A stretch of DNA of 64,000 bases from the IMG/VR virus record IMGVR_UViG_3300036886_000043, positions 33,231 through 97,230 of that record; one strand, given 5' to 3'. Positions 8,018-19,419 of this stretch are shown piece after piece. This stretch comes from a virus. The position numbers and the translations under genes were made by a program. The notes under the pieces were generated by a model. It saw only the letters and a list, made by a program, of their open reading frames with translations. It made no database searches and was not told the DNA's origin. Within the stretch, counting starts at the first letter, position 1. The number at the start of each line of letters is the position of its first letter.

Positions 8018-11000
8018 ATGCCGGACGCTGTTTACAAAGAGTACCCTCTCATCTTCCAAAGCAAGGGAATCTTCGCCCGCCAGGTCGATGACCTTGTGGA
8101 CCCGCAAGGGCTTTTGAATGAGGATAATGTTGAGGAGTTGGCAGAAGGCGCTTATGCTCAAAAATTGGGCAGTGTCCTCGTAAACGCCCAGGGGACCATC
8201 GGCCAGCCGGTCTACCCGTTATCGGGGAAAGTGGTCAGCCTATCCAAATTAGGCCAGTTGGCGGGGGCATACGCAAGATATGCGGTTACGGCAGACGGGG
8301 CTCTCTGGCGCAGATCGTTGCTTTCGGCGGGGCAGTTCACAAAGATTTCTACATCCTTCAGCGGGAGCCCTTGCTCGATTCAGTCTTACTGCAACACGGA
8401 TTTTACCTCAGTATCGACGGAATTTTTTGCAGACGCCGCAGGGATGTTCAAGGACGACGGAACCTTTGCGGCTCCACAGCAGATGGGCATCTTCCAGCCC
8501 CAGTTTCCAGTGCAGGCGCAGGCGCAGCCGCCCTCATCCGTGATACTTGACAACTATGTGACCTCGGCGGGGAGCTATTCATACACCGGGATCTCTGGAG
8601 GAACCAACGCAGGATACGTGAATACGACGATCCCTGCTGGAGTTCCCGCCGCAGGGCTTCAATCGGTAACGGTGGTCGATCCTACGCAGCCGGGCCTATT
8701 CCAGCTTTTGACTGTTGACTCAGGCGGAAATGCGGAGACGGTCCTTGTCCTCTTAGTGACTCCCACGGGGTTTGTGGCGAACTTCACAAAGATTCACTCA
8801 AGTGGAGTCACGGTCACGAGCGCAGACCTCTCGGTTTCGGTTCCTGCAAGCACTACGGCAACAATAAGTGCCTCATTCGGCATCCTTCCATGTGGGGCTA
8901 AACCGATACTTGTGAACTGGCCCGTTACAAACCAGCCACTACAGCAAGCGGACTACCTTGGCTTGTATCTTTTTGTCAGTGATCCAACCCAGATACAGAG
9001 CATCACGCTCAAGCTCGATTGCGGGGATGGTTCATTCGATAGTGATTATTTCTACAAGGTCATTGCTCAAGGTCCACTCCAAAATTTGGTATCTTCGGCA
9101 ACCTCTTCAACAGACCCAACAACTGCATTGACGGACGCGCTCCTGTCAGACAGCCTCAATCTCTACGGCAACCAAGCCGGAGGGATCGGTGAACTGAATA
9201 CCGGGCTCGACAACTGGACACCGCTCCTCTTTCAACTCTCCGACTTTGCCGGCTCAGGCCGTGCGGACTTCAACGATCCGGTCTACAACTGGGCCAACGT
9301 CAACGGCTACCAGATTCAGATTGTCACCAACGACAACACGAGCGTGACGGTCAATCTTGCGGCCCTGGTGCTCTTTGGCGGAGCCGGTCCAGATACGCTC
9401 GGAGGCGTAGCTTACGACTACGTGTGGACGTTTTTCAATCCGGTGGATGGAACAGAGTCAAACCCGTCAATGATTGTGACGAACCAGAACCCGCCGAATC
9501 AGACGAACCGGGTCTATCCGCGGCGCCAGCCGGTGTTGTTGAACATGGACGTTACCACTTACGGACCATTAGGGCAGTTGCAAGACGGTCAGATCGGGTA
9601 TCTGAGAATCTACAGGCGAGGTGGAACACTCGGGGACAACTTCCGAAGGGTAGATCAAATTCCGGTCAACATAGCGGCCGGGGGAATCGTCCAGTACATC
9701 GACACAGCGCCGGACTACCTAGTAGCCGGAGCAGATATTGTCTCGTTTACCAACGATGTTCCGGTCCCGAGCCTACTCCCGGTCCCGGTCAACACGACAT
9801 TGATGACTCCGATCTATACAGAAAATCAGGTGACGAACGTCTTCCCTGTGTCGATGGCAAACATCTCTGTGCGCCAGCAGGTAACAATCGGAAGTCCTAC
9901 TGCAATAGCAAACAACTTTGAAACCGTAATTGTTCTAACCCTCGACGAAGCAAGTTTTACTGCGTTTGTGCAAAACGCTCATGCGGCTGGAGAGCCGGTA
10001 CAGGCAAGCTATCAGGTAGGCCAGCCGGTTTATGGAATGGTCATAGCCTTCAACAAGGCATGGTATTGGGGAGATCCGAATAACCCGTCTACCCTCTACT
10101 TCAGCACCGGAAATGCTCCGCAGTACGTGGGAGAGGCGAACAACGTCATTGTCTCCACCCCGGACGACTACATCACAACAGTTAAGCCTTACAAGGGAAA
10201 CATCTTCGTCAGTTGCGTCAAAAGCGGGTGGTGGATGATTCCTCCGGGCTCTCCTGCCAGCCAGCCGCCGTATCCTACGGCCTGCGTACATGGCTGCGTG
10301 GCTCCGTTCGGGGCCGTGGCGACAGAGGAAATGATTCTCTATCAGGCGGCGGACGGAATACGCGCTTTCGCTGGAGGGGCATCGGAGTATATGAGTCTCC
10401 CGATTGAATTCATTTTTCAAGGCGTGGGTTCTACTCCGATTGTCGAAGCGGATCAAACGAAGTTGTCTCAGACGGTGGCCGCGTATTGGAACTCGATGGT
10501 ATTTTTCAGCTACATCGGGACGGATGGGAACCGGCATCGAGTGATTGCCCACGCTCAATACAAGAGGTTCAGGAATGACGACGTGGACGCTCAATGCCTC
10601 TTGCTTGAGGCCGACACGAATCAGTTGCTCTATGGAGACTCAAACGGACTGGTTCACATCGACCGTCAGAACCTTCCCTATGACCAGGTAAACAGCGGCG
10701 GTGTGCTGGCCGCGGGACCGATTGCGATCAATTTGCAAACAGCCTATAGCTTCCAAGGAAGCCCCGCGAACCAGAAACAGTATCAGGCCGTTCAGATCGA
10801 CTGCAACACAGGGGGCCAAACGCTCAACGTCAACCTTCTCTTCAATGATGGAGAGATCACAGTCGCGCTCGGAACGATCAGCAATGCACAGCGCGGCAAG
10901 ATCAATCTGCCAGTGAACTTAGGGTTGGGCCAACAGGCGTATAAGATTTCGCTTCAGATCACCGGCAACGTGTCTGCCTTCGCGTACCTCTATCAAGCCG

Positions 11001-11359
11001 CAGTTGAGGCTCTGGTGCTGCCGAGGACGCGGAAAACCGTAGATACCTACGACCTGAATTGCGGATTTGCAGACTCGAAATACTGCAAGGATTTTTGGGC
11101 ACAGTACACGGCTACGGCTCCGATCAACGTGCAAGTGTATTATGACGACAACGCAACCCCAGGGTTCACTTTCACGATGCCTCAAGCCGGAGGCGTCAGG
11201 AACCCTCTTAGGGTAAGATTACCGGCAGTCTCATTCAGGACGATCCGCGTGGTAGCGGAATCGACAGGGGACTTTCTCTGGTGGCCCGATACCTGTCTTT
11301 GGGTCAAGCCCCAGTGCGCTTCGAGGGGCTATGAGAAGGTGTTGATTGTTGAGAACTAA
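8018..11359 (+). CDS. large virion protein, probably tail nozzle / packaged-DNA stabilisation type
   Basis: 1113 aa, beta-rich, propeller-like motifs (PSTLYFS, GCVAPFG, LLYGDSNG); lies upstream of GNAT and ejection genes as in podoviruses. Confidence 0.6.
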   Translation: MPDAVYKEYPLIFQSKGIFARQVDDLVDPQGLLNEDNVEELAEGAYAQKLGSVLVNAQGTIGQPVYPLSGKVVSLSKLGQLAGAYARYAVTADGALWRRSLLSAGQFTKISTSFSGSPCSIQSYCNTDFTSVSTEFFADAAGMFKDDGTFAAPQQMGIFQPQFPVQAQAQPPSSVILDNYVTSAGSYSYTGISGGTNAGYVNTTIPAGVPAAGLQSVTVVDPTQPGLFQLLTVDSGGNAETVLVLLVTPTGFVANFTKIHSSGVTVTSADLSVSVPASTTATISASFGILPCGAKPILVNWPVTNQPLQQADYLGLYLFVSDPTQIQSITLKLDCGDGSFDSDYFYKVIAQGPLQNLVSSATSSTDPTTALTDALLSDSLNLYGNQAGGIGELNTGLDNWTPLLFQLSDFAGSGRADFNDPVYNWANVNGYQIQIVTNDNTSVTVNLAALVLFGGAGPDTLGGVAYDYVWTFFNPVDGTESNPSMIVTNQNPPNQTNRVYPRRQPVLLNMDVTTYGPLGQLQDGQIGYLRIYRRGGTLGDNFRRVDQIPVNIAAGGIVQYIDTAPDYLVAGADIVSFTNDVPVPSLLPVPVNTTLMTPIYTENQVTNVFPVSMANISVRQQVTIGSPTAIANNFETVIVLTLDEASFTAFVQNAHAAGEPVQASYQVGQPVYGMVIAFNKAWYWGDPNNPSTLYFSTGNAPQYVGEANNVIVSTPDDYITTVKPYKGNIFVSCVKSGWWMIPPGSPASQPPYPTACVHGCVAPFGAVATEEMILYQAADGIRAFAGGASEYMSLPIEFIFQGVGSTPIVEADQTKLSQTVAAYWNSMVFFSYIGTDGNRHRVIAHAQYKRFRNDDVDAQCLLLEADTNQLLYGDSNGLVHIDRQNLPYDQVNSGGVLAAGPIAINLQTAYSFQGSPANQKQYQAVQIDCNTGGQTLNVNLLFNDGEITVALGTISNAQRGKINLPVNLGLGQQAYKISLQITGNVSAFAYLYQAAVEALVLPRTRKTVDTYDLNCGFADSKYCKDFWAQYTATAPINVQVYYDDNATPGFTFTMPQAGGVRNPLRVRLPAVSFRTIRVVAESTGDFLWWPDTCLWVKPQCASRGYEKVLIVEN

Positions 11360-11385
11360 GGTGTATGCTGTATCTGAGGTGATTT

Positions 11386-11553
11386 ATGCTCAACATCATT
11401 TTGGTAATTCTGATGTTTCTGTGCGGATTTGGCGGATATGCGATCCCAGTTACGCAGCCGGCCGGTTTCCGGTATGGCGTCGGTCTTCTCGGCGCTGTGC
11501 TTTTTATCTTGTTTTGCCTCATCAACCTTGGCCTGATTCACCCAGGGCTATAA
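11386..11553 (+). CDS. small two-helix membrane protein
   Basis: MLNIILVILMFLCGFGG...LLGAVLFILFCLINLGLIHPGL; GAGGTG RBS. Confidence 0.7.
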   Translation: MLNIILVILMFLCGFGGYAIPVTQPAGFRYGVGLLGAVLFILFCLINLGLIHPGL

Positions 11554-11556
11554 GCG

Positions 11557-11721
11557 ATGATTATCTTGCTCATCATTGTTCTAGTTCTGCTCTTTGGCGG
11601 CGGCTTCGGTTACTACGGCCACACTCAATGGGGCGCGAATAACGTCTATGCAGGGCCGGGAATCGGCCTTGGAACCATCCTGATTATCCTGCTGATTCTG
11701 TTCCTGCTCGGCGTCATTTGA
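11557..11721 (+). CDS. DUF3309-like small membrane protein
   Basis: MIILLIIVLVLLFGGGFGYYGHTQWG...GIGLGTILIILLILFLLGVI. Confidence 0.75.
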   Translation: MIILLIIVLVLLFGGGFGYYGHTQWGANNVYAGPGIGLGTILIILLILFLLGVI

Positions 11722-11816
11722 GTCGTGTCCGCATGTGCATGTAGGACAGTGTTTAGTCGTTCCCGCTCTGTGGAAATCTCTCCGGTTGTCGAGAAGGGGT
11801 TACTATTCAGGTAGCC

Positions 11817-11845
11817 TTGACGCAAATCATTTTCCGTGCGATGAT
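11817..11845 (+). promoter_or_regulatory. promoter P1 of tRNA block 1
   Basis: TTGACG-17 nt-(TG)GATGAT, 6 nt before the leader ATG (leaderless). Confidence 0.7.
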
Positions 11846-11851
11846 TTTGAT

Positions 11852-11923
11852 ATGAGATTTGACCGCAACAGTTTATGCCTCTCCTATTCACTCCTGTCGA
11901 GTGACGGGGAGGCTGCGGTCTGA
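11852..11923 (+). CDS. attenuator leader peptide 1 MRFDRNSLCLSYSLLSSDGEAAV
   Basis: 11 consecutive S/L/C/Y codons matching the downstream tRNAs; lies between promoter and terminator. Confidence 0.85.
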   Translation: MRFDRNSLCLSYSLLSSDGEAAV

Positions 11924-11950
11924 TTCCAAAGTTTGGAATTTCAGCGAAGC

Positions 11951-11974
11951 GGCCTCCAGAAATGGAGGCTTTTT
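11951..11974 (+). terminator. attenuator 1 intrinsic terminator
   Basis: GGCCTCCA-GAAA-TGGAGGC-TTTTT. Confidence 0.9.
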
Positions 11975-11979
11975 GTTGT

Positions 11980-12063
11980 GCGGGATTGGCGAAACGGCAG
12001 CCGCGCCCGATTTAAGATCGGGTGTCTTAGGACGTGGGAGTTCAAGTCTCCCATCCCGCACCA
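11980..12063 (+). tRNA. trnL: tRNA-Leu(TAA)
   Basis: GCGGGAT/ATCCCGC; CCCGA-TTTAAGA-TCGGG; long variable arm; CCA. Confidence 0.95.
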
Positions 12064-12064
12064 T

Positions 12065-12141
12065 GTATCGGAAGGTAAAGTTTTGGAACCAGTGGTCCGC
12101 AAAACCACTTTTAGCCGGTGGGACTCCGGCCCGGTACTCCA
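12065..12141 (+). tRNA. trnC: tRNA-Cys(GCA), atypical
   Basis: GTATCGG/CCGGTAC, U73, GTGGT-CCGCAAA-ACCAC; T-loop TGGGACT; C33. Confidence 0.8.
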
Positions 12142-12153
12142 AAGTTTAGTAGT

Positions 12154-12232
12154 GCTCGCGTAGCCCAATTTGGCAGGAGGCACTTCATTCAAAACGAAGA
12201 CAGTGCTGGTTCAAATCCAGCCGCGAGTACCA
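12154..12232 (+). tRNA. trnL: tRNA-Leu(CAA), short variable loop
   Basis: GCTCGCG/CGCGAGT; loop TTCAAAA; variable region ACAGT. Confidence 0.9.
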
Positions 12233-12240
12233 AAATATGT

Positions 12241-12319
12241 GCCCCGTTAGCCCAATTGGCAGGAGGCGTCTGACTTAGGATCAGAACAGTGATGAGTTCG
12301 AATCTCTCACGGGGTACCA
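12241..12319 (+). tRNA. trnL: tRNA-Leu(TAG), short variable loop
   Basis: GCCCCGT/ACGGGGT; TCTGA-CTTAGGA-TCAGA; variable region ACAGT. Confidence 0.92.
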
Positions 12320-12328
12320 AAATTTAGA

Positions 12329-12357
12329 TTGCAACGGGTACCAATCTACTGTAAAAT
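12329..12357 (+). promoter_or_regulatory. promoter of the inserted endonuclease gene
   Basis: TTGCAA-17 nt-TAAAAT, 6 nt before ATG 12364. Confidence 0.75.
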
Positions 12358-12363
12358 ATTGGT

Positions 12364-12963
12364 ATGAATGGTGATTCGAGTATTTGCAATGGATGTGGTT
12401 TAAGTGAGCCAGAAGTGAGATTTCGATTGCGGAAGGCGAACGGGAAAACTTACAGAAAACACTTGTGTACAAAATGTGATGATGAATATCAAAAGAAGTA
12501 CACTAAACCTCAAGGCGTAAAAGATAGGAATAGAAAATCGTATCTGAAAAGAAAGGAGAGAAGAGCACGGGGAGAAATAGTCGAGATTTTCCTTCTTGAG
12601 GACTGTCGAAGAATTGACAGAAAAAAAGGTATCAAATCCGATTTAGACTCTGAATATATTGCGGAGATAATAAAGGATGGATGCGCGTATTGCGGAGATA
12701 TAGAATCACGCATTGGGCTTGATCGGATAGATAATTCACTGGGCCACATGAAGGGAAATGTTAACGCCTGTTGTATGAGATGTAATCTTATTCGTAGGGA
12801 TATGCCATACGAAGCATGGCTGATTGTAGCGCCCACGATGAAGATTGCGAGAGAATCAAAAGCGTTTGGGAATTGGAATGTGCTTTTTGGAAACAAGAAG
12901 AAAACGGAGCGCGGGCCGGACGATAAGGCAACGGGTTGCTACCCCGCACAGCCGCAAGGCTGA
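12364..12963 (+). CDS. HNH/His-Me-type homing endonuclease
   Basis: CxxC pairs; CAYCG...GLDRIDNSLGHMKGNVNACCMRCN; AT-rich insertion between tRNA genes. Confidence 0.85.
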   Translation: MNGDSSICNGCGLSEPEVRFRLRKANGKTYRKHLCTKCDDEYQKKYTKPQGVKDRNRKSYLKRKERRARGEIVEIFLLEDCRRIDRKKGIKSDLDSEYIAEIIKDGCAYCGDIESRIGLDRIDNSLGHMKGNVNACCMRCNLIRRDMPYEAWLIVAPTMKIARESKAFGNWNVLFGNKKKTERGPDDKATGCYPAQPQG

Positions 12964-12991
12964 CTGAGTTTGACTCTCAGGCGCTCCGCCA
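12906..12991 (+). tRNA. trnS: tRNA-Ser(GCT)
   Basis: GGAGCGC/GCGCTCC, G73, loop TTGCTAC, variable arm CAGCC-GCAA-GGCTG. Confidence 0.88.
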
Positions 12992-12995
12992 GTTC

Positions 12996-13080
12996 GGAAG
13001 GTACCGCTGAAAGGTCGGCAAACGGTCCTGAAAACCGTGGCTCCTTCGGGATGGGCGTTCGATTCGTCTACCTTCCGCCA
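12996..13080 (+). tRNA. trnS: tRNA-Ser(TGA)
   Basis: GGAAGGT(A)/(T)ACCTTCC; ACGGT-CCTGAAA-ACCGT; variable arm; C33. Confidence 0.9.
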
Positions 13081-13085
13081 AGTTT

Positions 13086-13172
13086 GGGAGTGATGCTCTG
13101 TAGGGAGAGCAGCAGGCCGTAACCCTGCCGTCACTTGTGGCATAGGGGGTTCGATTCCCTCCACTCCCACCA
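13086..13172 (+). tRNA. trnY: tRNA-Tyr(GTA)
   Basis: GGGAGTG/CACTCCC; GCAGG-CCGTAAC-CCTGC; variable arm; C33. Confidence 0.9.
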
Positions 13173-13175
13173 TAC

Positions 13176-13204
13176 TTGTCAACACGGAAGAGTAGTGGTA
13201 TACT
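13176..13204 (+). promoter_or_regulatory. internal promoter without leader peptide, upstream of the initiator tRNA
   Basis: TTGTCA-17 nt-(TG)TATACT. Confidence 0.8.
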
Positions 13205-13209
13205 GAAAT

Positions 13210-13284
13210 CGCGGGTTGGTAGCGCAGCGTCATACGTCAGGCTCATACCCTGAAGATCCGGTGCAAATCCGGTACCCGCAACCA
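13210..13284 (+). tRNA. trnfM: tRNA-fMet(CAT), initiator type
   Basis: C1.A72 mismatch (CGCGGGT/ACCCGCA); TCAGG-CTCATAC-CCTGA. Confidence 0.85.
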
Positions 13285-13285
13285 A

Positions 13286-13361
13286 GGTCACGTCGTCTAA
13301 CTGGAAGGATACTTCCCTGTCTAGGAAGCTGGCGCGGGTTCGATTCCCGTCGTGATCGCCA
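13286..13361 (+). tRNA. trnD: tRNA-Asp(GTC)
   Basis: GGTCACG/CGTGATC, G73; CTTCC-CTGTCTA-GGAAG. Confidence 0.93.
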
Positions 13362-13367
13362 AGTTTA

Positions 13368-13446
13368 GCCGATGCACTCTGTACTGGATTCGGAGCACTC
13401 CCCTTCAAGGAGTTGGATGCGAGTTCGATTCTCGTCGTCGGCGCCA
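13368..13446 (+). tRNA. trnE: tRNA-Glu(TTC)
   Basis: GCCGATG/CGTCGGC; ACTCC-CCTTCAA-GGAGT; C33. Confidence 0.88.
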
Positions 13447-13454
13447 AGTTTTAC

Positions 13455-13531
13455 GGGGTCACCGTCTAATTGGTCTGGACGCCAGATTCTCAATCTGGAA
13501 ACTGTGAGTTCGATCCTCACTGGCCCTACCA
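13455..13531 (+). tRNA. trnE: tRNA-Glu(CTC)
   Basis: GGGGTCA/TGGCCCT; CCAGA-TTCTCAA-TCTGG. Confidence 0.93.
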
Positions 13532-13540
13532 GAAAATGAT

Positions 13541-13569
13541 TTGACAGAAATTGCGAACGGCGGTACAGT
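13541..13569 (+). promoter_or_regulatory. promoter P2 of tRNA block 2
   Basis: TTGACA-17 nt-TACAGT. Confidence 0.85.
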
Positions 13570-13579
13570 AGAAAACGAG

Positions 13580-13648
13580 ATGAAAAACCGAGTCAATCAC
13601 GGATTTACACCAGCGACGGCGCAACCGACGCAGGGTAATCCTATGTAG
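13580..13648 (+). CDS. attenuator leader peptide 2 MKNRVNHGFTPATAQPTQGNPM
   Basis: contains a cognate codon for all 12 block-2 tRNAs; lies between promoter and terminator. Confidence 0.88.
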   Translation: MKNRVNHGFTPATAQPTQGNPM

Positions 13649-13674
13649 CGGCTCGTGGAGTTTGAAGCAAAGCG

Positions 13675-13705
13675 CCCACCGAGCCAATCAGCCGGTGGGT
13701 TTTTT
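13675..13705 (+). terminator. attenuator 2 intrinsic terminator
   Basis: CCCACCG...CGGTGGG-TTTTTT. Confidence 0.88.
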
Positions 13706-13713
13706 GTTGATGT

Positions 13714-13789
13714 TCCAGCGTAGCAAAAAGGTAATGCGCCGCACTGTTAATGCGGAAATGTGCAGGTTCGAGTCCTGCCGCTGGAGCCA
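13714..13789 (+). tRNA. trnN: tRNA-Asn(GTT)
   Basis: TCCAGCG/CGCTGGA; CCGCA-CTGTTAA-TGCGG. Confidence 0.95.
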
Positions 13790-13798
13790 GTTTGAAGT

Positions 13799-13873
13799 TG
13801 CCCGTTCGTTCATGTGGCAGGACGGCTGACTCTGGATCAGCGGAGCGAGGTTCAAGTCCTCGACGGGCAGCCA
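13799..13873 (+). tRNA. trnQ: tRNA-Gln(CTG)
   Basis: TGCCCGT/ACGGGCA; GCTGA-CTCTGGA-TCAGC. Confidence 0.95.
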
Positions 13874-13881
13874 AGTTTTAC

Positions 13882-13957
13882 AGGGAGATGGCCGAGCGGC
13901 TTAGGCGACAGCCTTTGGAACTGTCTCAGGTAGGTTCGACTCCTACTCTCCCTGCCA
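13882..13957 (+). tRNA. trnQ: tRNA-Gln(TTG)
   Basis: AGGGAGA/TCTCCCT; loop CTTTGGA. Confidence 0.93.
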
Positions 13958-13958
13958 T

Positions 13959-14034
13959 GCGGACGTAGCTCAATTGGTAGAGCACAGCGTTGCCAATGCT
14001 GAGGTTGCCGGATCGTTGCCGGTCGTTCGCTCCA
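13959..14034 (+). tRNA. trnG: tRNA-Gly(GCC)
   Basis: GCGGACG/CGTTCGC, U73; loop TTGCCAA; T-loop ATCGTTG. Confidence 0.93.
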
Positions 14035-14119
14035 AATTTTGGAGGTTGACATGCCGCACAGGTATCATTTCAATGCCGATCTCCGAGAAGTGTACAGAAG
14101 GCTGGCGGGACAATTTCGA

Positions 14120-14194
14120 GCACCGTTAGTTGAGTCGGCACAACACGACACTCGTAACGTCGAGGCTCCGGTTCGAGGCCGGGACGGTGCTCCA
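14120..14194 (+). tRNA. trnT: tRNA-Thr(CGT)
   Basis: GCACCGT/ACGGTGC; loop CTCGTAA. Confidence 0.9.
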
Positions 14195-14208
14195 GAATTG
14201 GAAGGTGA

Positions 14209-14748
14209 GTGATGAATTTGATGCGGAAGCCGGTATTGCAGTTGAATGCAAGCTACGAGCCGCTTCGCATCATCGCGGCAAGAAGGGCATTGACGCTCAT
14301 AACCAAGGGCGTAGCCGTGGTGGAAGTGCCAACCAGCACAGTAGTCTATCCTGGCATCTACTTGCCCTCAGTGATTCGGTTGCGGACTTACCGGCATGTG
14401 CCTATTAGGATGCAGGTGATGAGCCGCAAGAACATTCTCCTTCGGGATGGCGGCCGCTGCATGTATTGCGGACAGAGGTCAAACGAATTGACGCTTGACC
14501 ATGTGATTCCGCGTTCCCGTGGCGGATTGAATACGTGGGACAATCTTGTGGCTTGCTGCAAACGCGACAATCACAAGAAGAACGACAGGACTCCAGAGGA
14601 AGCGGGAATGAACTTGATTCACAGGCCGCTTCCGCAAACGATCCACACGCCGCGGTTTGTTCTACGGTCTATGGGTTTGGAAGTAAATGAGTGGAGCCCG
14701 TACTTGTGGGCCGACTCCGAAGGCGACAAGAAGTATGCGTTTAACTGA
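14209..14748 (+). CDS. HNH endonuclease (McrA/HNH_5-like)
   Basis: VLQLNASYEPL...LPSVIRL...RDGGRCMYCG...TLDHVIPRSRGG...WDNLVACCKRDNHKK. Confidence 0.93.
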   Translation: MMNLMRKPVLQLNASYEPLRIIAARRALTLITKGVAVVEVPTSTVVYPGIYLPSVIRLRTYRHVPIRMQVMSRKNILLRDGGRCMYCGQRSNELTLDHVIPRSRGGLNTWDNLVACCKRDNHKKNDRTPEEAGMNLIHRPLPQTIHTPRFVLRSMGLEVNEWSPYLWADSEGDKKYAFN

Positions 14749-14820
14749 GCCGGGTGAACATCGAATGTTGCGGGCGCTTGTATCGCTTGCTAGTGGGTTC
14801 GACTCCCACATCCGGCCCCA
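14749..14820 (+). tRNA. trnT: tRNA-Thr(TGT), compact fold
   Basis: GCCGGGT/ATCCGGC; D arm AACA-TCGAA-TGTT; 6-7-bp anticodon stem, loop CTTGTAT. Confidence 0.82.
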
Positions 14821-14830
14821 ACAAGTTCAT

Positions 14831-14905
14831 GGGGAATATCGTTCAGCGATAGGACGCTAAGTTGTGGCCTTAGTCACCGCAGTTTGATTCTGCGTATTCC
14901 CCCCA
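14831..14905 (+). tRNA. trnH: tRNA-His(GTG)
   Basis: G-1:C73; CTAAG-TTGTGGC-CTTAG. Confidence 0.92.
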
Positions 14906-14918
14906 AGTTTTAAGTAGT

Positions 14919-14993
14919 GGGCGTGTGGTGCTAATGGGAACACATCCGGCCTGCACCCGGAAGTTGAGAGTTCGATTCTCTCCATGTCCACCA
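14919..14993 (+). tRNA. trnA: tRNA-Ala(TGC)
   Basis: G3:U70; TCCGG-CCTGCAC-CCGGA; C33. Confidence 0.93.
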
Positions 14994-14999
14994 AGTTTT

Positions 15000-15075
15000 G
15001 CCGACTTAGCTGATGAGGTCATAGCGGTCGCCTGAAGAGCGATAGAAGCCCGCTCGATACGGGCAGTCGGCACCA
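15000..15075 (+). tRNA. trnF: tRNA-Phe(GAA)
   Basis: GCCGACT/AGTCGGC; loop CTGAAGA. Confidence 0.92.
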
Positions 15076-15076
15076 T

Positions 15077-15154
15077 CGGTGTGTAGCGTAGTCTGCTTAA
15101 CGCGCTCCGTTCGGGACGGAGAGATCGCAGGTCGAAATCCTGCCACGCCGACCA
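15077..15154 (+). tRNA. trnP: tRNA-Pro(CGG)
   Basis: CGGTGTG/CACGCCG; CTCCG-TTCGGGA-CGGAG. Confidence 0.93.
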
Positions 15155-15160
15155 GTTTAC

Positions 15161-15234
15161 CGGGGTGTAGTGTAAAGGAAACATCCGTGGCCTGGGACCA
15201 CGTGTTGGGCTTTCGAGATGCCCCACCCCGACCA
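15161..15234 (+). tRNA. trnP: tRNA-Pro(TGG)
   Basis: CGGGGTG/CACCCCG; CGTGG-CCTGGGA-CCACG; C33. Confidence 0.88.
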
Positions 15235-15240
15235 ATTTAC

Positions 15241-15315
15241 GGCCCGTTCGTTCAATGGACAGGACTTCGGATTACGAATCCGACAATCAGAGTTCGACTC
15301 TCTGGCGGGCTACCA
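15241..15315 (+). tRNA. trnR: tRNA-Arg(ACG)
   Basis: GGCCCGT/GCGGGCT; TCGGA-TTACGAA-TCCGA; A20. Confidence 0.95.
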
Positions 15316-15316
15316 C

Positions 15317-15345
15317 TTGCAAGAAAAGAAAAGTTGATGTACAGT
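15317..15345 (+). promoter_or_regulatory. promoter P3 of tRNA block 3
   Basis: TTGCAA-17 nt-TACAGT, 7 nt before the leader ATG. Confidence 0.82.
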
Positions 15346-15352
15346 GGAATTC

Positions 15353-15421
15353 ATGCAGATCAGGACCAAACACGGAATAACCAGAATGACCAAGCGGGTC
15401 ATTTGGGGGATCGTGTGTTGA
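15353..15421 (+). CDS. attenuator leader peptide 3 MQIRTKHGITRMTKRVIWGIVC
   Basis: contains a cognate codon for all 12 block-3 tRNAs; lies between promoter and terminator. Confidence 0.9.
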   Translation: MQIRTKHGITRMTKRVIWGIVC

Positions 15422-15447
15422 GGGTCTGAGCATTTTGGTACGCACAG

Positions 15448-15472
15448 ACCTTCGCTCAGGCGAGGGTTTTTT
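15448..15472 (+). terminator. attenuator 3 intrinsic terminator
   Basis: ACCTTCGC-TCAG-GCGAGGG-TTTTTT. Confidence 0.9.
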
Positions 15473-15488
15473 ATTGCTCTTTGAAAAT

Positions 15489-15563
15489 AGGGGAGTGCTG
15501 GCGGCACAGCGGTTGGTCTCCAAAACCAACGTCACGGCGGTTCGAGTCCGCTCTCCCCTGCCA
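15489..15563 (+). tRNA. trnW: tRNA-Trp(CCA), compact fold
   Basis: AGGGGAG/CTCCCCT, G73; GTTGGT-CTCCAAA-ACCAAC. Confidence 0.9.
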
Positions 15564-15568
15564 TTTTT

Positions 15569-15637
15569 GGCACGTACCCAAGGCGGGAAGCGATCCTCAT
15601 AAGATCGTAAACTGGTTCGAGTCCAGGCGTGCTACCA
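15569..15637 (+). tRNA. trnM: tRNA with CAT anticodon (probably elongator Met), 69 nt
   Basis: GGCACGT/GCGTGCT; GCGATC-CTCATAA-GATCGT; minimal D arm. Confidence 0.8.
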
Positions 15638-15642
15638 GTTTT

Positions 15643-15736
15643 GGGCGATAGCACCGGCCGTGCGGCGGAGTCTTATAAACTCTGGAGAGCGCCAGATTAG
15701 CGCAACGGGAAGGATCGACACCTTCATCGCCTACCA
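15643..15736 (+). tRNA. trnI: tRNA-Ile(TAT) with long variable arm
   Basis: GGGCGAT/ATCGCCT; CGGAGT-CTTATAA-ACTCTG; GCGC-CAGATTA-GCGC arm. Confidence 0.8.
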
Positions 15737-15739
15737 TGT

Positions 15740-15814
15740 GGGTCGCAGATGTTTTTGGCGGCATACCCGGCTCTTACCCGGAATGGCGGGGTTCGACTCC
15801 CCGGCGACCCACCA
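15740..15814 (+). tRNA. trnK: tRNA-Lys(CTT)
   Basis: GGGTCGC/GCGACCC; CCGG-CTCTTAC-CCGG. Confidence 0.9.
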
Positions 15815-15823
15815 TCTGTTTTC

Positions 15824-15897
15824 GGACTGCGAGTGTGATGGTGCATAACGCCCTTTTAAGGCGTTTGGATAGAGTTCGATTCTCTAGCGGTCCACCA
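15824..15897 (+). tRNA. trnK: tRNA-Lys(TTT)
   Basis: GGACTGC/GCGGTCC; ACGCC-CTTTTAA-GGCGT. Confidence 0.9.
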
Positions 15898-15898
15898 T

Positions 15899-15973
15899 GG
15901 CCCTATAGCTCAAGGGGATAGAGTGCGGTCTTCTAAGCCGTCGATCACCGTTCGACTCGGTGTAGGGCTCCCA
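15899..15973 (+). tRNA. trnR: tRNA-Arg(TCT)
   Basis: GGCCCTA/TAGGGCT; loop CTTCTAA; A20. Confidence 0.92.
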
Positions 15974-15978
15974 GTTTT

Positions 15979-16055
15979 GCCGCTGTATCTCTCCGGTTTC
16001 CTAAACCGGCAAGAGTAGTTGGATGACGCCGGTTCGACTCCGGCCAGCGGCCCCA
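15979..16055 (+). tRNA. trnR: tRNA-Arg(CCT) with no 5' D arm (rearranged core)
   Basis: GCCGCTG/CAGCGGC; CCGGT-TTCCTAA-ACCGG; perfect T arm; CCA. Confidence 0.8.
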
Positions 16056-16060
16056 GGTTT

Positions 16061-16138
16061 GCTGCCGTATTCGGTTCTGGTTCCGAACCAGAGGGCCGTA
16101 GATGGAGAAGGCAGGTTCGAGTCCTGTCGGCAGCGCCA
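16061..16138 (+). tRNA. trnR: tRNA-Arg(CCG) with no 5' D arm (rearranged core)
   Basis: GCTGCCG/CGGCAGC; TCTGG-TTCCGAA-CCAGA; canonical T arm; CCA. Confidence 0.8.
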
Positions 16139-16143
16139 GTTTA

Positions 16144-16219
16144 GCCGGGTTCGCCCAAAGGCTTAGGGCCGATGGTCTACACCCATCTGATAGGGGTTCG
16201 AGTCCTCTACCCGGCACCA
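16144..16219 (+). tRNA. trnV: tRNA-Val(TAC)
   Basis: GCCGGGT/ACCCGGC; GATGG-TCTACAC-CCATC; C33. Confidence 0.92.
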
Positions 16220-16224
16220 AGATT

Positions 16225-16298
16225 GTCGATGTAGCTCAGTGGTAGAGCACCGCAATGGTAATGCGGCGACGAGGGTCCGATTCCCTCCTTCGGCTCCA
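16225..16298 (+). tRNA. trnT: tRNA-Thr(GGT)
   Basis: TAGCTCAGTGGTAGAGC D arm; CCGCA-ATGGTAA-TGCGG. Confidence 0.92.
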
Positions 16299-16302
16299 TT
16301 TT

Positions 16303-16377
16303 GCCGATGTAGCTCAATGGCAGAGCATTCGCTTGATAAGCGAAAGGTCAGTGGATCAGTACCACTCATCGGCACCA
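16303..16377 (+). tRNA. trnI: tRNA-Ile(GAT)
   Basis: GCCGATG/CATCGGC; TTCGC-TTGATAA-GCGAA. Confidence 0.93.
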
Positions 16378-16383
16378 AGTTGA

Positions 16384-16458
16384 GCGGGATTAGCCAAGTG
16401 GAAAGGCAATGGGCTTCCAACCCATTATGCGTCGGTTCAACCCCGACATCCCGCTCCA
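16384..16458 (+). tRNA. trnG: tRNA-Gly(TCC)
   Basis: GCGGGAT/ATCCCGC, U73; ATGGG-CTTCCAA-CCCAT. Confidence 0.94.
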
Positions 16459-16489
16459 CTTTTCTGCCAACAAGCGTTATACTACTTTC

Positions 16490-17425
16490 ATGCCGAAGTC
16501 GCCCAAACTCGGAAAGATTACATTCTCCTCTTTGTCTCTTCCAGAGCAAATCCAGATGAGCAACTTGCAGGATGCCGTGAACATCCTCGGCGGTCATTCG
16601 GGGGAAGTCGAGTTAAGCAATCATCTAAACCTCGGCGGGAACAAAATAACGAACGTGGCGGCGCCGGCCGCGGATAGCGATGTGTTGACGAGCGGAGCGG
16701 CAGAAACAAAGTATTCCGCGGCGGCTTTACGTCCGCAGCTTGAGTCGAGCGGGACGCATCCATTCGTAGGCTACAGACAAGTCAATAATCAAGGACAGCG
16801 CGAAAAAACCTCAAGCTGGCTCAACGAGCTTCTCTCTACCCCTCCGAACTCCAACAACATCAATCCCATCGTCAGTTCTTCGGGAGGCTCAACGAGCGTC
16901 ACGATCCCGGCCAGCATCTTGCAGATGGGGGATGGAACCACGCGATACCTTCCTTCGCGGACGGACACGTTGACCAACCCGGCAAGCTACTCCATTACCT
17001 CGTTTACGATTGCTTTGGGAGTGGCAACGGTGGTTTTGTCCTCGACTCCATCGCCGGCTTTGGCTGCGCCTACGGTGGTGTACATTTCAGGGACGAGTGA
17101 GATTGACGGGACGTTCCCGATTGCAAGCATTGTCAGCCCGACGACGTTCACGATCAACGTAAGCAGTGGGGTGTCTGGCACTGGAGGGACGGTAGAGACG
17201 GGAGGAATCTGCTACTATTACCTCAACAAGTCATTCCAGAAGGTGATGCTATCCGTCCTTCCGTCATCTTCAGACACCCCGTTTAGGCGTCTCGGAATTT
17301 CTGGAGACGGATACCAGTTGCTTGCGGTTGTCAGCATCAATTCGAGCGGAACTGTCCAAGTGGGGACGGCCGGAGGGGGAACGCCGAGCGTCGTTAGCAC
17401 AGCCAATGCAGGAAGCAGGTTCTAA
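16490..17425 (+). CDS. probable virion/tail-associated protein
   Basis: LNLGGNKITNVAAP fibre-like motif, S/T/G-rich; true start probably ATG 16490, 6 nt after TATACT. Confidence 0.6.
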   Translation: MPKSPKLGKITFSSLSLPEQIQMSNLQDAVNILGGHSGEVELSNHLNLGGNKITNVAAPAADSDVLTSGAAETKYSAAALRPQLESSGTHPFVGYRQVNNQGQREKTSSWLNELLSTPPNSNNINPIVSSSGGSTSVTIPASILQMGDGTTRYLPSRTDTLTNPASYSITSFTIALGVATVVLSSTPSPALAAPTVVYISGTSEIDGTFPIASIVSPTTFTINVSSGVSGTGGTVETGGICYYYLNKSFQKVMLSVLPSSSDTPFRRLGISGDGYQLLAVVSINSSGTVQVGTAGGGTPSVVSTANAGSRF

Positions 17426-17630: not shown

Positions 17631-18275
17631 ATGGAAACGAAAATTCTCGAAGCGGTTGAAACGAGTAAGATGTCAGTTTGTTCACCAGTCAAAGTATGGA
17701 AGTTCCCAGAACCGGGAAAGAACTACATCTTGTCGGCAGACCCCTGCTTGGGGACTGAAACAGATAGCTCCAATGCCGCAATCGAAGTAATTGATGCGGA
17801 GACTGGGGAACAGTGTGCAGAGTTTGCTCAGGTGGTGTCTCCTGAAAACCTAGCACCGATAATCTTCGATTTGGCGAAGAGATACAATAATGCGGAAGTG
17901 GCGGTAGAGGTAAACAGTGTCGGCATGTTGACGAACAAACTCCTGATTCACAAGTTTAATTACGAAAACATCTACCGCTTCAAACGGCTTGATCGCCTTC
18001 AAAATACCATGACGGACATCGTTGGATGGTGGACCGATTACAAGTCTAAGGCGCAAATGGAAGCCATATTCAGGGATTTTTTGGGGAATAATATAGGATT
18101 GATCCACAGTAAAAAATTGCTAAATGAGATTCTTTTCTACAACGAAGATAGTCCTAAACCGAATGATCGGTTTGCAGCCATGATGATTGCTCTGGCCGTT
18201 CGGGACGAGTTACTGAAGTCTAGGGCTTCTATTCTGAAGGCAGAAGAGAAGATGAGGAATAGGGGAGTGGATTGA
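17631..18275 (+). CDS. stand-alone terminase large-subunit nuclease-like domain
   Basis: YILSADPCLG, GEQCAEF, LAKRYNNAEVAVEVN, GWWT, NDRFAAMMIAL; no ATPase domain. Confidence 0.75.
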   Translation: METKILEAVETSKMSVCSPVKVWKFPEPGKNYILSADPCLGTETDSSNAAIEVIDAETGEQCAEFAQVVSPENLAPIIFDLAKRYNNAEVAVEVNSVGMLTNKLLIHKFNYENIYRFKRLDRLQNTMTDIVGWWTDYKSKAQMEAIFRDFLGNNIGLIHSKKLLNEILFYNEDSPKPNDRFAAMMIALAVRDELLKSRASILKAEEKMRNRGVD

Positions 18276-18476
18276 CGAACTGGAAGCGATCTGCCGAGCA
18301 GATGGATTGGAGCTTCCGACAATGTACGTGGCGTGGAATCCACGTTGCCCAGTCCACGGCTTTCCTGAAGGTTCCGAGGAATATCAGAACGCTGCAATCT
18401 TGTCTGAAACTAAGGTAATGGAGACGAAGTGGTATCAGCGTTGGCGTGACCTGATGGCAAAGGAAATGGAAGCCCA

Positions 18477-18731
18477 ATGAAAATCATCGTCAAAGACGTG
18501 AAGGTTCATCCGGTAACCGGCTACATGGAAGTGGACGTGGTGGCCGTGAACGATAAGGGCGTGGAGGGTCCGAAGAAGACGTATGGAACGGACGCTCATC
18601 AACTTCAATCGGCATACAGTGGGGACATTAACTTGTGGCTGGCATCGGTGAAGGGGACTCACGAACAGCACCATGGGCACCACGAGGTTTTGGCCGCGCA
18701 GTTGTTGGGGATGAAAGGGAAGGAACTATGA
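18477..18731 (+). CDS. hypothetical protein
   Basis: 84-aa ORF in the + strand gene run. Confidence 0.55.
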   Translation: MKIIVKDVKVHPVTGYMEVDVVAVNDKGVEGPKKTYGTDAHQLQSAYSGDINLWLASVKGTHEQHHGHHEVLAAQLLGMKGKEL

Positions 18732-18948
18732 AGAAGTTTAGAGGCAAGCCGAATCCAACACGAACAAATAGGGCATTTGAGGCTTTAGCTAAAAACTTCT
18801 ACACGGACACTCCAATGTGGAGGTTTGTTGCGAGGGGTGGTAGGGGGCGTAGGTTGATGATCTTGTATCGGCGGCTGAAGGGGAGTCGGAGGCCGCAGTG
18901 CTTTCGGCAGGATGTTTGGTGATTCCAAAATTTGGAATGGAGGGTGAT

Positions 18949-19419
18949 ATGGGATTGATTTTCAAAGACGAAGTAACGTCATCGGAGCCGCTGGATATGC
19001 CTCCTGTCAATCGACGGATTGCAAAGAACTCCGTTACAGGCGAGGACTACATCCCTGGATATGTGATTGGCCGCGGCGTAAATGTTGGCACAGAAACCTG
19101 TATTTACAGTCTTGAACAAGTGGACGGTCAGCCGCCAATGACCGCGGCGCAGAAAGCATTCGGAGTTCTTTGGTATGGGGATCTAAAACCAGACCTCATA
19201 CTTTCTTCTGAGGTATACATGAAGAAGATGGTCCGCCGCATAATTCCGAATCAGCGCAAGGCGGGGATGTACGGCTGTAATTTTGGCTTCTTTCTTAACG
19301 GGGCAATATGGTCCTATAGCGAAGAGGTTGATTGCAGTGAAGGATGGGTGTTTATTTTGAACACGAAATACCCGACAGCACCGCATCTCAATGGGTGCTA
19401 TAAGGCGATGGAGGAGTGA
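18949..19419 (+). CDS. hypothetical protein
   Basis: GGAGGGTG RBS; stop overlaps the next start. Confidence 0.6.
   Translation: MGLIFKDEVTSSEPLDMPPVNRRIAKNSVTGEDYIPGYVIGRGVNVGTETCIYSLEQVDGQPPMTAAQKAFGVLWYGDLKPDLILSSEVYMKKMVRRIIPNQRKAGMYGCNFGFFLNGAIWSYSEEVDCSEGWVFILNTKYPTAPHLNGCYKAMEE

Follow-up and report, generated by a model that had tools for sequence, protein, structure and literature searches.

Organization of the tRNA array and of unit 2

The window analysed here, a stretch of 64,000 nt, belongs to a viral record of 97,230 bp that carries direct terminal repeats and recurs in peat metagenomes; the sequencing runs listed as containing it include no RNA run. A same-strand tRNA array extends from 11.8 to 16.5 kb of the window, with 28 genes called by ARAGORN and about seven more, a Thr(TGT) candidate among them, added by relaxed settings and hand inspection. 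Three units, each preceding its own tRNA block, share a common order: a promoter, a short ORF, a terminator and, within 9-20 nt, a tRNA gene. Unit 1 (11817-11978, plus strand) carries a promoter, a leaderless ORF at 11852-11923 and a terminator at 11951-11970, followed by tRNA-Leu at 11980. Similarly, unit 3 (15317-15475, plus strand) carries a promoter, a leaderless ORF at 15353-15421 and a terminator at 15447-15468, followed by tRNA-Trp at 15489.

Relatives of this phage were found via the neighbouring 1113-aa virion protein. The comparison covers four genomes, namely the window and L006, L017 and L029, with amino-acid identities to the window of 78%, 53% and 52%, respectively, and one fragment, L002; about 100 further contigs carry a homologue of the 1113-aa protein. 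The three-unit layout is kept in L006, L017 and L029. A scan of genome contigs with the virion protein alignment returned no relative, and a pattern scan of viral contigs for unit 3 returned the three known relatives and two chance matches in coding DNA (L033 and L035). The corresponding unit 2 pattern gave 33 matches, of which just two, on already-known contigs, are real, the others being coding or devoid of tRNAs. A search of INPHARED revealed no close isolated phage, only tRNA-level similarity and a distant virion protein match. The virion protein shares 23% identity with phages of the acidobacterium Tunturiibacter, which provides the sole hint at the host and points to Acidobacteriota.

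Unit 2 (13541-13705, plus strand) is composed of a sigma70-like promoter, a 22-codon ORF and an intrinsic terminator, and precedes a block of 12 tRNAs. The promoter (13541-13569, plus strand) has a -35 hexamer TTGACA at 13541-46, a 17-nt spacer and a -10 hexamer TACAGT at 13564-69, thus agreeing at 10 of 12 positions with the consensus; for promoters, terminators and leaderless initiation alike, the rules applied here are assumed ones. In L006, L017 and L029, the promoter retains its -35 hexamer, its spacer length and its placement with respect to the ATG, and 42 nt at the promoter are identical between the window and L006. The leader ORF (13580-13648, plus strand) comprises 22 sense codons and a TAG stop (13646-13648), exactly as quoted in the initial annotation. 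Its ATG lies 10 nt 3' of the -10 hexamer, which predicts a near-leaderless message with a 5' UTR of about 3-5 nt. Indeed, an ATG is found downstream of the predicted promoter in all 12 units of the four genomes and lies 6-10 nt after the -10 hexamer in nine of them, indicating leaderless or near-leaderless messages; the exceptions are unit 3 of all three relatives, with UTRs of 20-40 nt. The intrinsic terminator (13674-13705, plus strand) consists of a hairpin at 13674-13700 (-17.1 kcal/mol) and a run of six T, and ends 13 nt upstream of tRNA-Asn. Since no space is left for a second promoter between the terminator and this first tRNA, block 2 would be made only by read-through.

Block 2 (13714-15315, plus strand) encodes tRNAs for Asn, Gln (two), Gly(GCC), Thr(CGT), His, Ala, Phe, Pro (two) and Arg(ACG), together with the Thr(TGT) candidate. 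Eleven of these genes are called by ARAGORN, whereas the twelfth, Thr(TGT), is missed by default ARAGORN and by the Rfam tRNA model. This candidate (about 14750-14826) nevertheless adopts a cloverleaf fold with the anticodon at 14779-14781 and aligns with the Thr(TGT) gene of L006, itself called by ARAGORN under relaxed settings; the content of 12 tRNAs proposed initially for this block is thereby upheld. An ORF for an HNH endonuclease (14209-14748; Pfam HNH_5, E 1e-14) is also located inside the block.

Several other elements of the array are worth describing. Within block 2, a small ORF at 14051-14119, preceded by a GGAGG Shine-Dalgarno sequence and conserved in L006, has a frame that continues into tRNA-Thr(CGT) at 14120. 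A free-standing 46-codon homologue of this ORF is present at 13568-13705 of L012, a distant relative without the array, and the ORF may be either a gene remnant or part of an mRNA-tRNA hybrid transcript within block 2. Further upstream, between tRNA-Tyr and an initiator-like tRNA(CAT) gene (13210-13284), a promoter-like site (13176-13204; TTGTCA, 17 nt, TATACT with an extended TG) has neither a leader ORF nor a terminator; it is conserved at about 14990-15020 of L006. The fMet/Asp/Glu sub-block may have its own unattenuated start at this site. Together with the Shine-Dalgarno-led ORF at 14051, the site points to possible independent expression of some of the array. In unit 1, a perfect palindromic hairpin (11924-11940) separates the stop codon from the terminator; it is conserved in the four genomes, with counterparts at about 14333-14349 in L006 and, carrying paired changes, at about 13425-13439 in L017, and may act in pausing, in processing or in protein binding. 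Block 1 contains an ORF (12364-12963) with Cys-rich HNH-like motifs and no Pfam match. Finally, two Arg tRNA-like genes, at 15978-16052 (anticodon CCT, 16000-02) and 16060-16135 (anticodon CCG, 16083-85), are missed by ARAGORN and give just weak tRNA-Sec-like matches in Rfam. Their codons, AGG and CGG, are present in leader 3, and canonical homologues exist for both genes in L029 and for Arg(CCT) in L017.

The codon content of each leader is matched to its own tRNA block

Recounting of leader 2 under strict wobble rules shows that 16 of its 21 post-ATG codons are read by block 2 tRNAs, or 17 if U34 is allowed to read a whole box. From TTT to AAT, 12 codons in a row are matched, and each of the 12 block 2 tRNAs is sampled, in agreement with the counts given by the initial annotation. 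Such a composition is exceptional for this phage: 21-codon windows of its own long ORFs contain on average 6.9 block 2 matches and at most 15, none of 2635 reaching 16, and all 12 block 2 tRNAs are sampled in as few as 0.08% of 21-codon gene windows. Furthermore, leader 2 ranks first for block 2 match among the 353 short ATG ORFs of the window, and its other two frames contain 8 and 5 matches of 21. The five unmatched codons, AAA, GTC, GGA, CCT and ATG, count against a sensing function of the leader; of these, GGA is retained in three leaders, although Gly-TCC sits in block 3.

The two other leaders have distinct compositions. Leader 1 (11852-11923) is rich in Leu, Ser, Cys and Tyr codons and has 11 matches to block 1, 4 to block 2 and 2 to block 3. 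Leader 3 has 2 matches to each of blocks 1 and 2 and 17 to block 3, that is 17 of 21 codons, including ATA, AGA, AGG, CGG and TGG. For leader 2, the corresponding values are 1, 16 and 3. To assess this own-block match, the tRNAs were shuffled 20000 times among blocks, with only the default ARAGORN tRNA sets used; on this basis the summed own-block match in the window is 37/64, against a shuffle mean of 17.6 (sd 3.8), and none of the 20000 shuffles reaches 37. The relatives behave in the same manner, with 28 own-block matches in L006 (shuffle mean 14.2; 1 of 20000 reaching the observed value), 33 in L017 (18.4; 0 of 20000) and 38 in L029 (21.9; 0 of 20000).

The specificity extends to synonymous codons. 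Those for Thr, Arg and Gly are divided between the leaders according to the location of the corresponding isoacceptors: for Thr, ACR accounts for 11 of 15 codons in leader 2 and ACY for 13 of 13 in leader 3 (Fisher p 7e-5); for Arg, CGA/CGC/CGT account for 7 of 9 in leader 2 and AGR/CGG for 11 of 11 in leader 3 (p 5e-4); and the Gly codons show a similar split (p 0.009). The four genomes are related, so that these and other pooled p-values are inflated and overstate independence.

Comparison of the relatives also revealed how the leaders change. Relative to the window, the central part of leader 2 is re-ordered in L006 but retains the same codon set, indicating selection on composition and not on the peptide. 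In L029, the Asp and the two Glu tRNAs are found in block 3 instead of block 1, and among the leader 3 sequences of the four genomes only that of L029 contains GAA and GAT. Comparison with four peat DNA runs gave other contigs, in runs X15, X17 and X18, that match only the core of leader 2 (13579-13640), with unlike flanks; these cores carry 1-5 differences or a 6-nt in-frame deletion, which indicates that further variants of the leader exist in peat.

Predicted RNA structures and the proposed switch

Three alternative helices are predicted in the unit 2 transcript. Region 1 (13588-13594, plus strand), the anti-antiterminator strand covering codons 3-5, pairs with region 2 (at 13650-57) in the full-length MFE fold, and the sensor codons lying between them form an inner hairpin (13601-13641, plus strand). 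Region 2 (13650-13658, plus strand; GGCTCGTGG), the 5' strand of the antiterminator, begins 2 nt after the stop codon. Region 3 (13676-13685, plus strand) is common to the antiterminator, where it pairs with region 2, and to the 5' arm of the terminator. The full-length transcript folds as 1:2 plus 3:4, whereas a transcript cut before the 3' arm of the terminator folds as 2:3. The pairing of 13650-13658 with 13676-13685, which the initial annotation had put forward, is recovered as a helix with one bulged C (-17.9 kcal/mol, z -3.65); taken alone in a stricter duplex-versus-shuffle test, this helix is not significant (146/500), so that its support comes from its position and from the comparison between genomes.

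The same three helices are present in unit 2 of L006 and L017, though the sequences differ. The 1:2 helix, found in the unit 2 MFE folds of the window, L006 and L017, is not evident in unit 2 of L029; it is strong in units 1 and 3. In all 12 units of the four genomes, a GC-rich hairpin with a U-tail ends 7-37 nt upstream of the first tRNA. The strand that pairs best with the terminator 5' arm lies no more than about 22 nt from the stop codon in 10 of 12 units; with regard to the footprint of a terminating ribosome, region 2 is clearly inside in eight units, borderline in two and ambiguous in two. Moreover, the terminator arms differ between relatives, and the stop-proximal strand varies along with them. 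Accordingly, 2:3 duplexes formed within a genome are more stable than those formed across genomes (-17.6 vs -14.4 kcal/mol, p 0.001), and pairing with the own partner ranks first and second of 24 permutations for units 1 and 2, respectively, unit 3 being too conserved to be informative.

To examine how translation could influence these structures, a 30-nt ribosome mask was stepped along the transcript by A-site codon. For leader 2, the antiterminator is predicted with the A site at codons 2-19, while the 2:3 pairs fall to 0 at codons 22-23. These folds bear out the earlier proposal that region 2 lies within the footprint of a terminating ribosome. Each of the three units has its run of matched codons within the permissive A-site window. 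Truncated transcripts of units 2 and 3 adopt the antiterminator fold with no ribosome present as well, so that kinetics would decide which state a leader takes up when it is not translated.

Collectively, these sequence-based data make it probable that unit 2 is a ribosome-mediated leader-peptide transcription attenuator, which gates the tRNA block and senses the supply of the tRNAs encoded therein. This interpretation, already offered in the initial annotation, is supported by the presence of a promoter, a short ORF with its stop codon next to region 2, alternative 2:3 and 3:4 helices, a predicted 1:2 helix and a terminator that directly adjoins the first tRNA. It is further backed by the relatives, which keep the design, and by the own-block match, the synonymous codon choice and the Asp/Glu shift of L029.

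While the anatomy, the specificity of the codons for their block and the conservation with co-variation are directly observed, we infer where transcription starts, that the ORF is translated, that termination is conditional and in which direction the system responds. RNA polymerase would start at the sigma70-like promoter, and a ribosome would start on the leaderless or near-leaderless ATG. If all codons are decoded fast, the ribosome would reach the stop codon and cover region 2 (13650-58), so that the 3:4 terminator could form and transcription would end 13 nt before tRNA-Asn. If any of the sampled aminoacyl-tRNAs is scarce, namely Asn, Arg-ACG, His, Phe, Thr-TGT, Thr-CGT, Pro-TGG, Pro-CGG, Ala, Gln-TTG, Gln-CTG or Gly-GCC, the ribosome would stall with its A site in codons 2-19. 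Such a stall would leave region 2 free to pair with region 3, no terminator would form and the polymerase would enter the block. As the phage tRNAs accumulate, the leader would be translated faster and the block would be switched off again; because the block encodes the very tRNAs that are sensed, this constitutes a negative feedback. Units 1 and 3 would exert the same control over their own two blocks.

Other explanations of these data were considered. The codon-block match reveals selection on decoding alone and is silent on what a stall controls, the folds are thermodynamic predictions only, and tRNA precursors are heavily processed. The ORF could therefore be translated at a speed that matters, with an output other than intrinsic termination, for example shielding of the precursor against Rho or RNases, or control over how RNase P/E processes the first tRNAs, the hairpin and T-run being a processing or stability element. 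We regard this as unlikely, given that the hairpin and U-run have the canonical GC-rich form in 12 of 12 units, that the strand on the stop side co-varies with the 5' arm of the hairpin, as a terminator/antiterminator switch predicts, and that the hairpins of Caulobacter phage phiCbK, described below, were independently annotated as rho-independent terminators. It is still less probable that the units are plain punctuation, in which a constitutive promoter and a leaky terminator fix the tRNA level and the ORF is no sensor. It is indeed not rare for a frame to stay open over 20-30 codons from a given ATG (an estimated ~0.38 for 20 codons at this composition), and in simple scans the density of sites resembling promoters and terminators in the region is close to that expected by chance. 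However, punctuation would leave unexplained the block-specific codon match (0/20000) and the partition of synonymous codons, as well as the re-ordered L006 leader of equal composition, the gain of GAA/GAT in L029 leader 3 and the complement of the terminator arm found beside the stop codon in 10 of 12 units.

Direct sensing of tRNAs by the leader RNA, through codon-anticodon pairing and without a ribosome as in T-boxes, would also account for a leader that displays the cognate codons of the downstream tRNAs and for the alternative terminator and antiterminator helices. Nevertheless, cmscan of 11000-17000 at E up to 1 returned tRNA-type and a few weak unrelated matches, with no T-box or other riboswitch family. 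Direct sensing appears very improbable also in view of the conserved ATG, which in 9 of 12 units follows the -10 hexamer by 6-10 nt, of the location of the stop codon next to region 2 and of the confinement of the match to the reading frame (8 and 5 of 21 in the other frames); in addition, many sampled codons lie in a predicted hairpin rather than in a specifier-like loop. Equally hard to sustain is the idea that the ORFs encode small functional peptides whose composition reflects peptide function. Although the leader 3 peptide is well conserved between the window and L006, leader 2 of L006 keeps its composition and not its order, no motif is common to the peptides across units, and synonymous codon choice, beyond amino-acid choice, tracks the block.

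Comparison with known systems and with phage phiCbK

Leader-peptide attenuation is well known from amino-acid operons, with trpL, hisL, leuL and pheL and the multivalent thr and ilvGMEDA leaders. In E. coli, the pheST attenuator, with its pheM leader, controls a gene of the translation apparatus and senses charged tRNA-Phe; it acts on a synthetase and responds to one amino acid, and is not known to create a direct feedback from a tRNA gene to its product. Among these systems, the pheL attenuator has been described in PMC3082878. Like the trp, his and ilv leaders, the phage units combine a short ORF that lies close to the promoter and is rich in regulatory codons with predicted 2:3 and 3:4 helices that exclude each other, a stop codon that would let the terminating ribosome block the antiterminator, and an intrinsic terminator before the regulated genes; the 1:2 helix of those leaders is likewise predicted, though not evident in unit 2 of L029. 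In contrast to amino-acid leaders, they control tRNA genes and not biosynthetic enzymes. Leader 2 has no run of one codon; its codons represent about nine amino acids and twelve isoacceptors, most of them one or two times, with resolution of synonymous codons. The phage units are also viral, mostly leaderless and present in three copies, each matched to its own block.

As in T-boxes, a 5' leader would choose between terminator and antiterminator by using a codon to read the status of a tRNA. T-boxes, however, bind uncharged tRNA directly, use a single specifier codon, possess a conserved Stem I and T-box motifs, and operate without a ribosome.

Among published inducible arrays of accessory tRNAs, the closest is the trn operon of Anabaena sp. 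PCC 7120, whose 26-tRNA L-array is induced under translational stress (PMC8421152). Its repressor TrcR, of the RHH type, binds tandem 9-nt direct repeats that cover the -10 hexamer together with the start site (PMC8421152, PMC10272220). In the reading proposed here, the phage array resembles that operon in being an accessory tRNA array that is kept low and turned on when translation is impaired. An additional likeness concerns rtcB, which is associated with the Anabaena array; in L006, an RtcB tRNA ligase gene (18230-19414, E 2e-69) lies inside the array, just upstream of unit 3. On the other hand, the Anabaena operon is a single unit controlled by a protein repressor, with no translation of a leader and no codon-resolved sensing.

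An attenuator-like Phe leader ahead of the E. coli pheU and pheV genes was considered as a precedent and rejected, as pheV has a plain promoter directly upstream. Leaders of 3-4 nt are reported in PMC7049720, which also speaks against this precedent. Full-text literature searches returned no paper on attenuation of tRNA genes or of phage tRNA arrays.

A similar organization is observed in the Caulobacter phage phiCbK (NC_019405, 47.7-52.6 kb; L069 47300-52700), where a promoter, a short ORF, an annotated rho-independent terminator and a tRNA block follow each other at three places. The promoters are sigma70-like and the short ORFs partly leaderless. The own-block codon match is 37/94, against a shuffle mean of 21.9, and 0 of 20000 shuffles reach the observed value. 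PhiCbK is a cultured phage of an unrelated lineage and shares no sequence similarity with the window; its leaders, of 20-45 codons, exceed those of the window in length and are matched less densely. The phiCbK record annotates the terminators, and one leader as the hypothetical protein gp335, not as a regulator. Since the design is found in a cultured phage of a model bacterium, bench testing is possible now.

The recurrence of this arrangement in the peat lineage and, independently, in phiCbK suggests that codon-indexed leader-peptide attenuators may well be a general, so far undescribed, phage control of accessory tRNA blocks. Their logic and anatomy are those of known attenuators; what is new is the target genes, the breadth of sensing and the resolution of synonymous codons. 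In practical terms, such a leader could be used as a compact natural part that senses decoding speed at the level of individual isoacceptors.

The usual view of phage tRNA genes is that they patch codon usage constitutively or stand in for host tRNAs that have been cleaved. The present findings make it testable whether phages sense the host tRNA pool. If our interpretation is correct, unit 2 would be the first known attenuator of tRNA genes and would carry the most multivalent leader peptide known, and tRNA abundance would feed back directly on tRNA transcription. Each leader would then be a ribosome-read inventory of the isoacceptors encoded behind it. In this way, the phage would replenish precisely the tRNAs that the infected cell is short of, whether the shortage stems from codon-usage mismatch, host shut-off or defence by anticodon nucleases, and would silence the block as soon as the supply has recovered.
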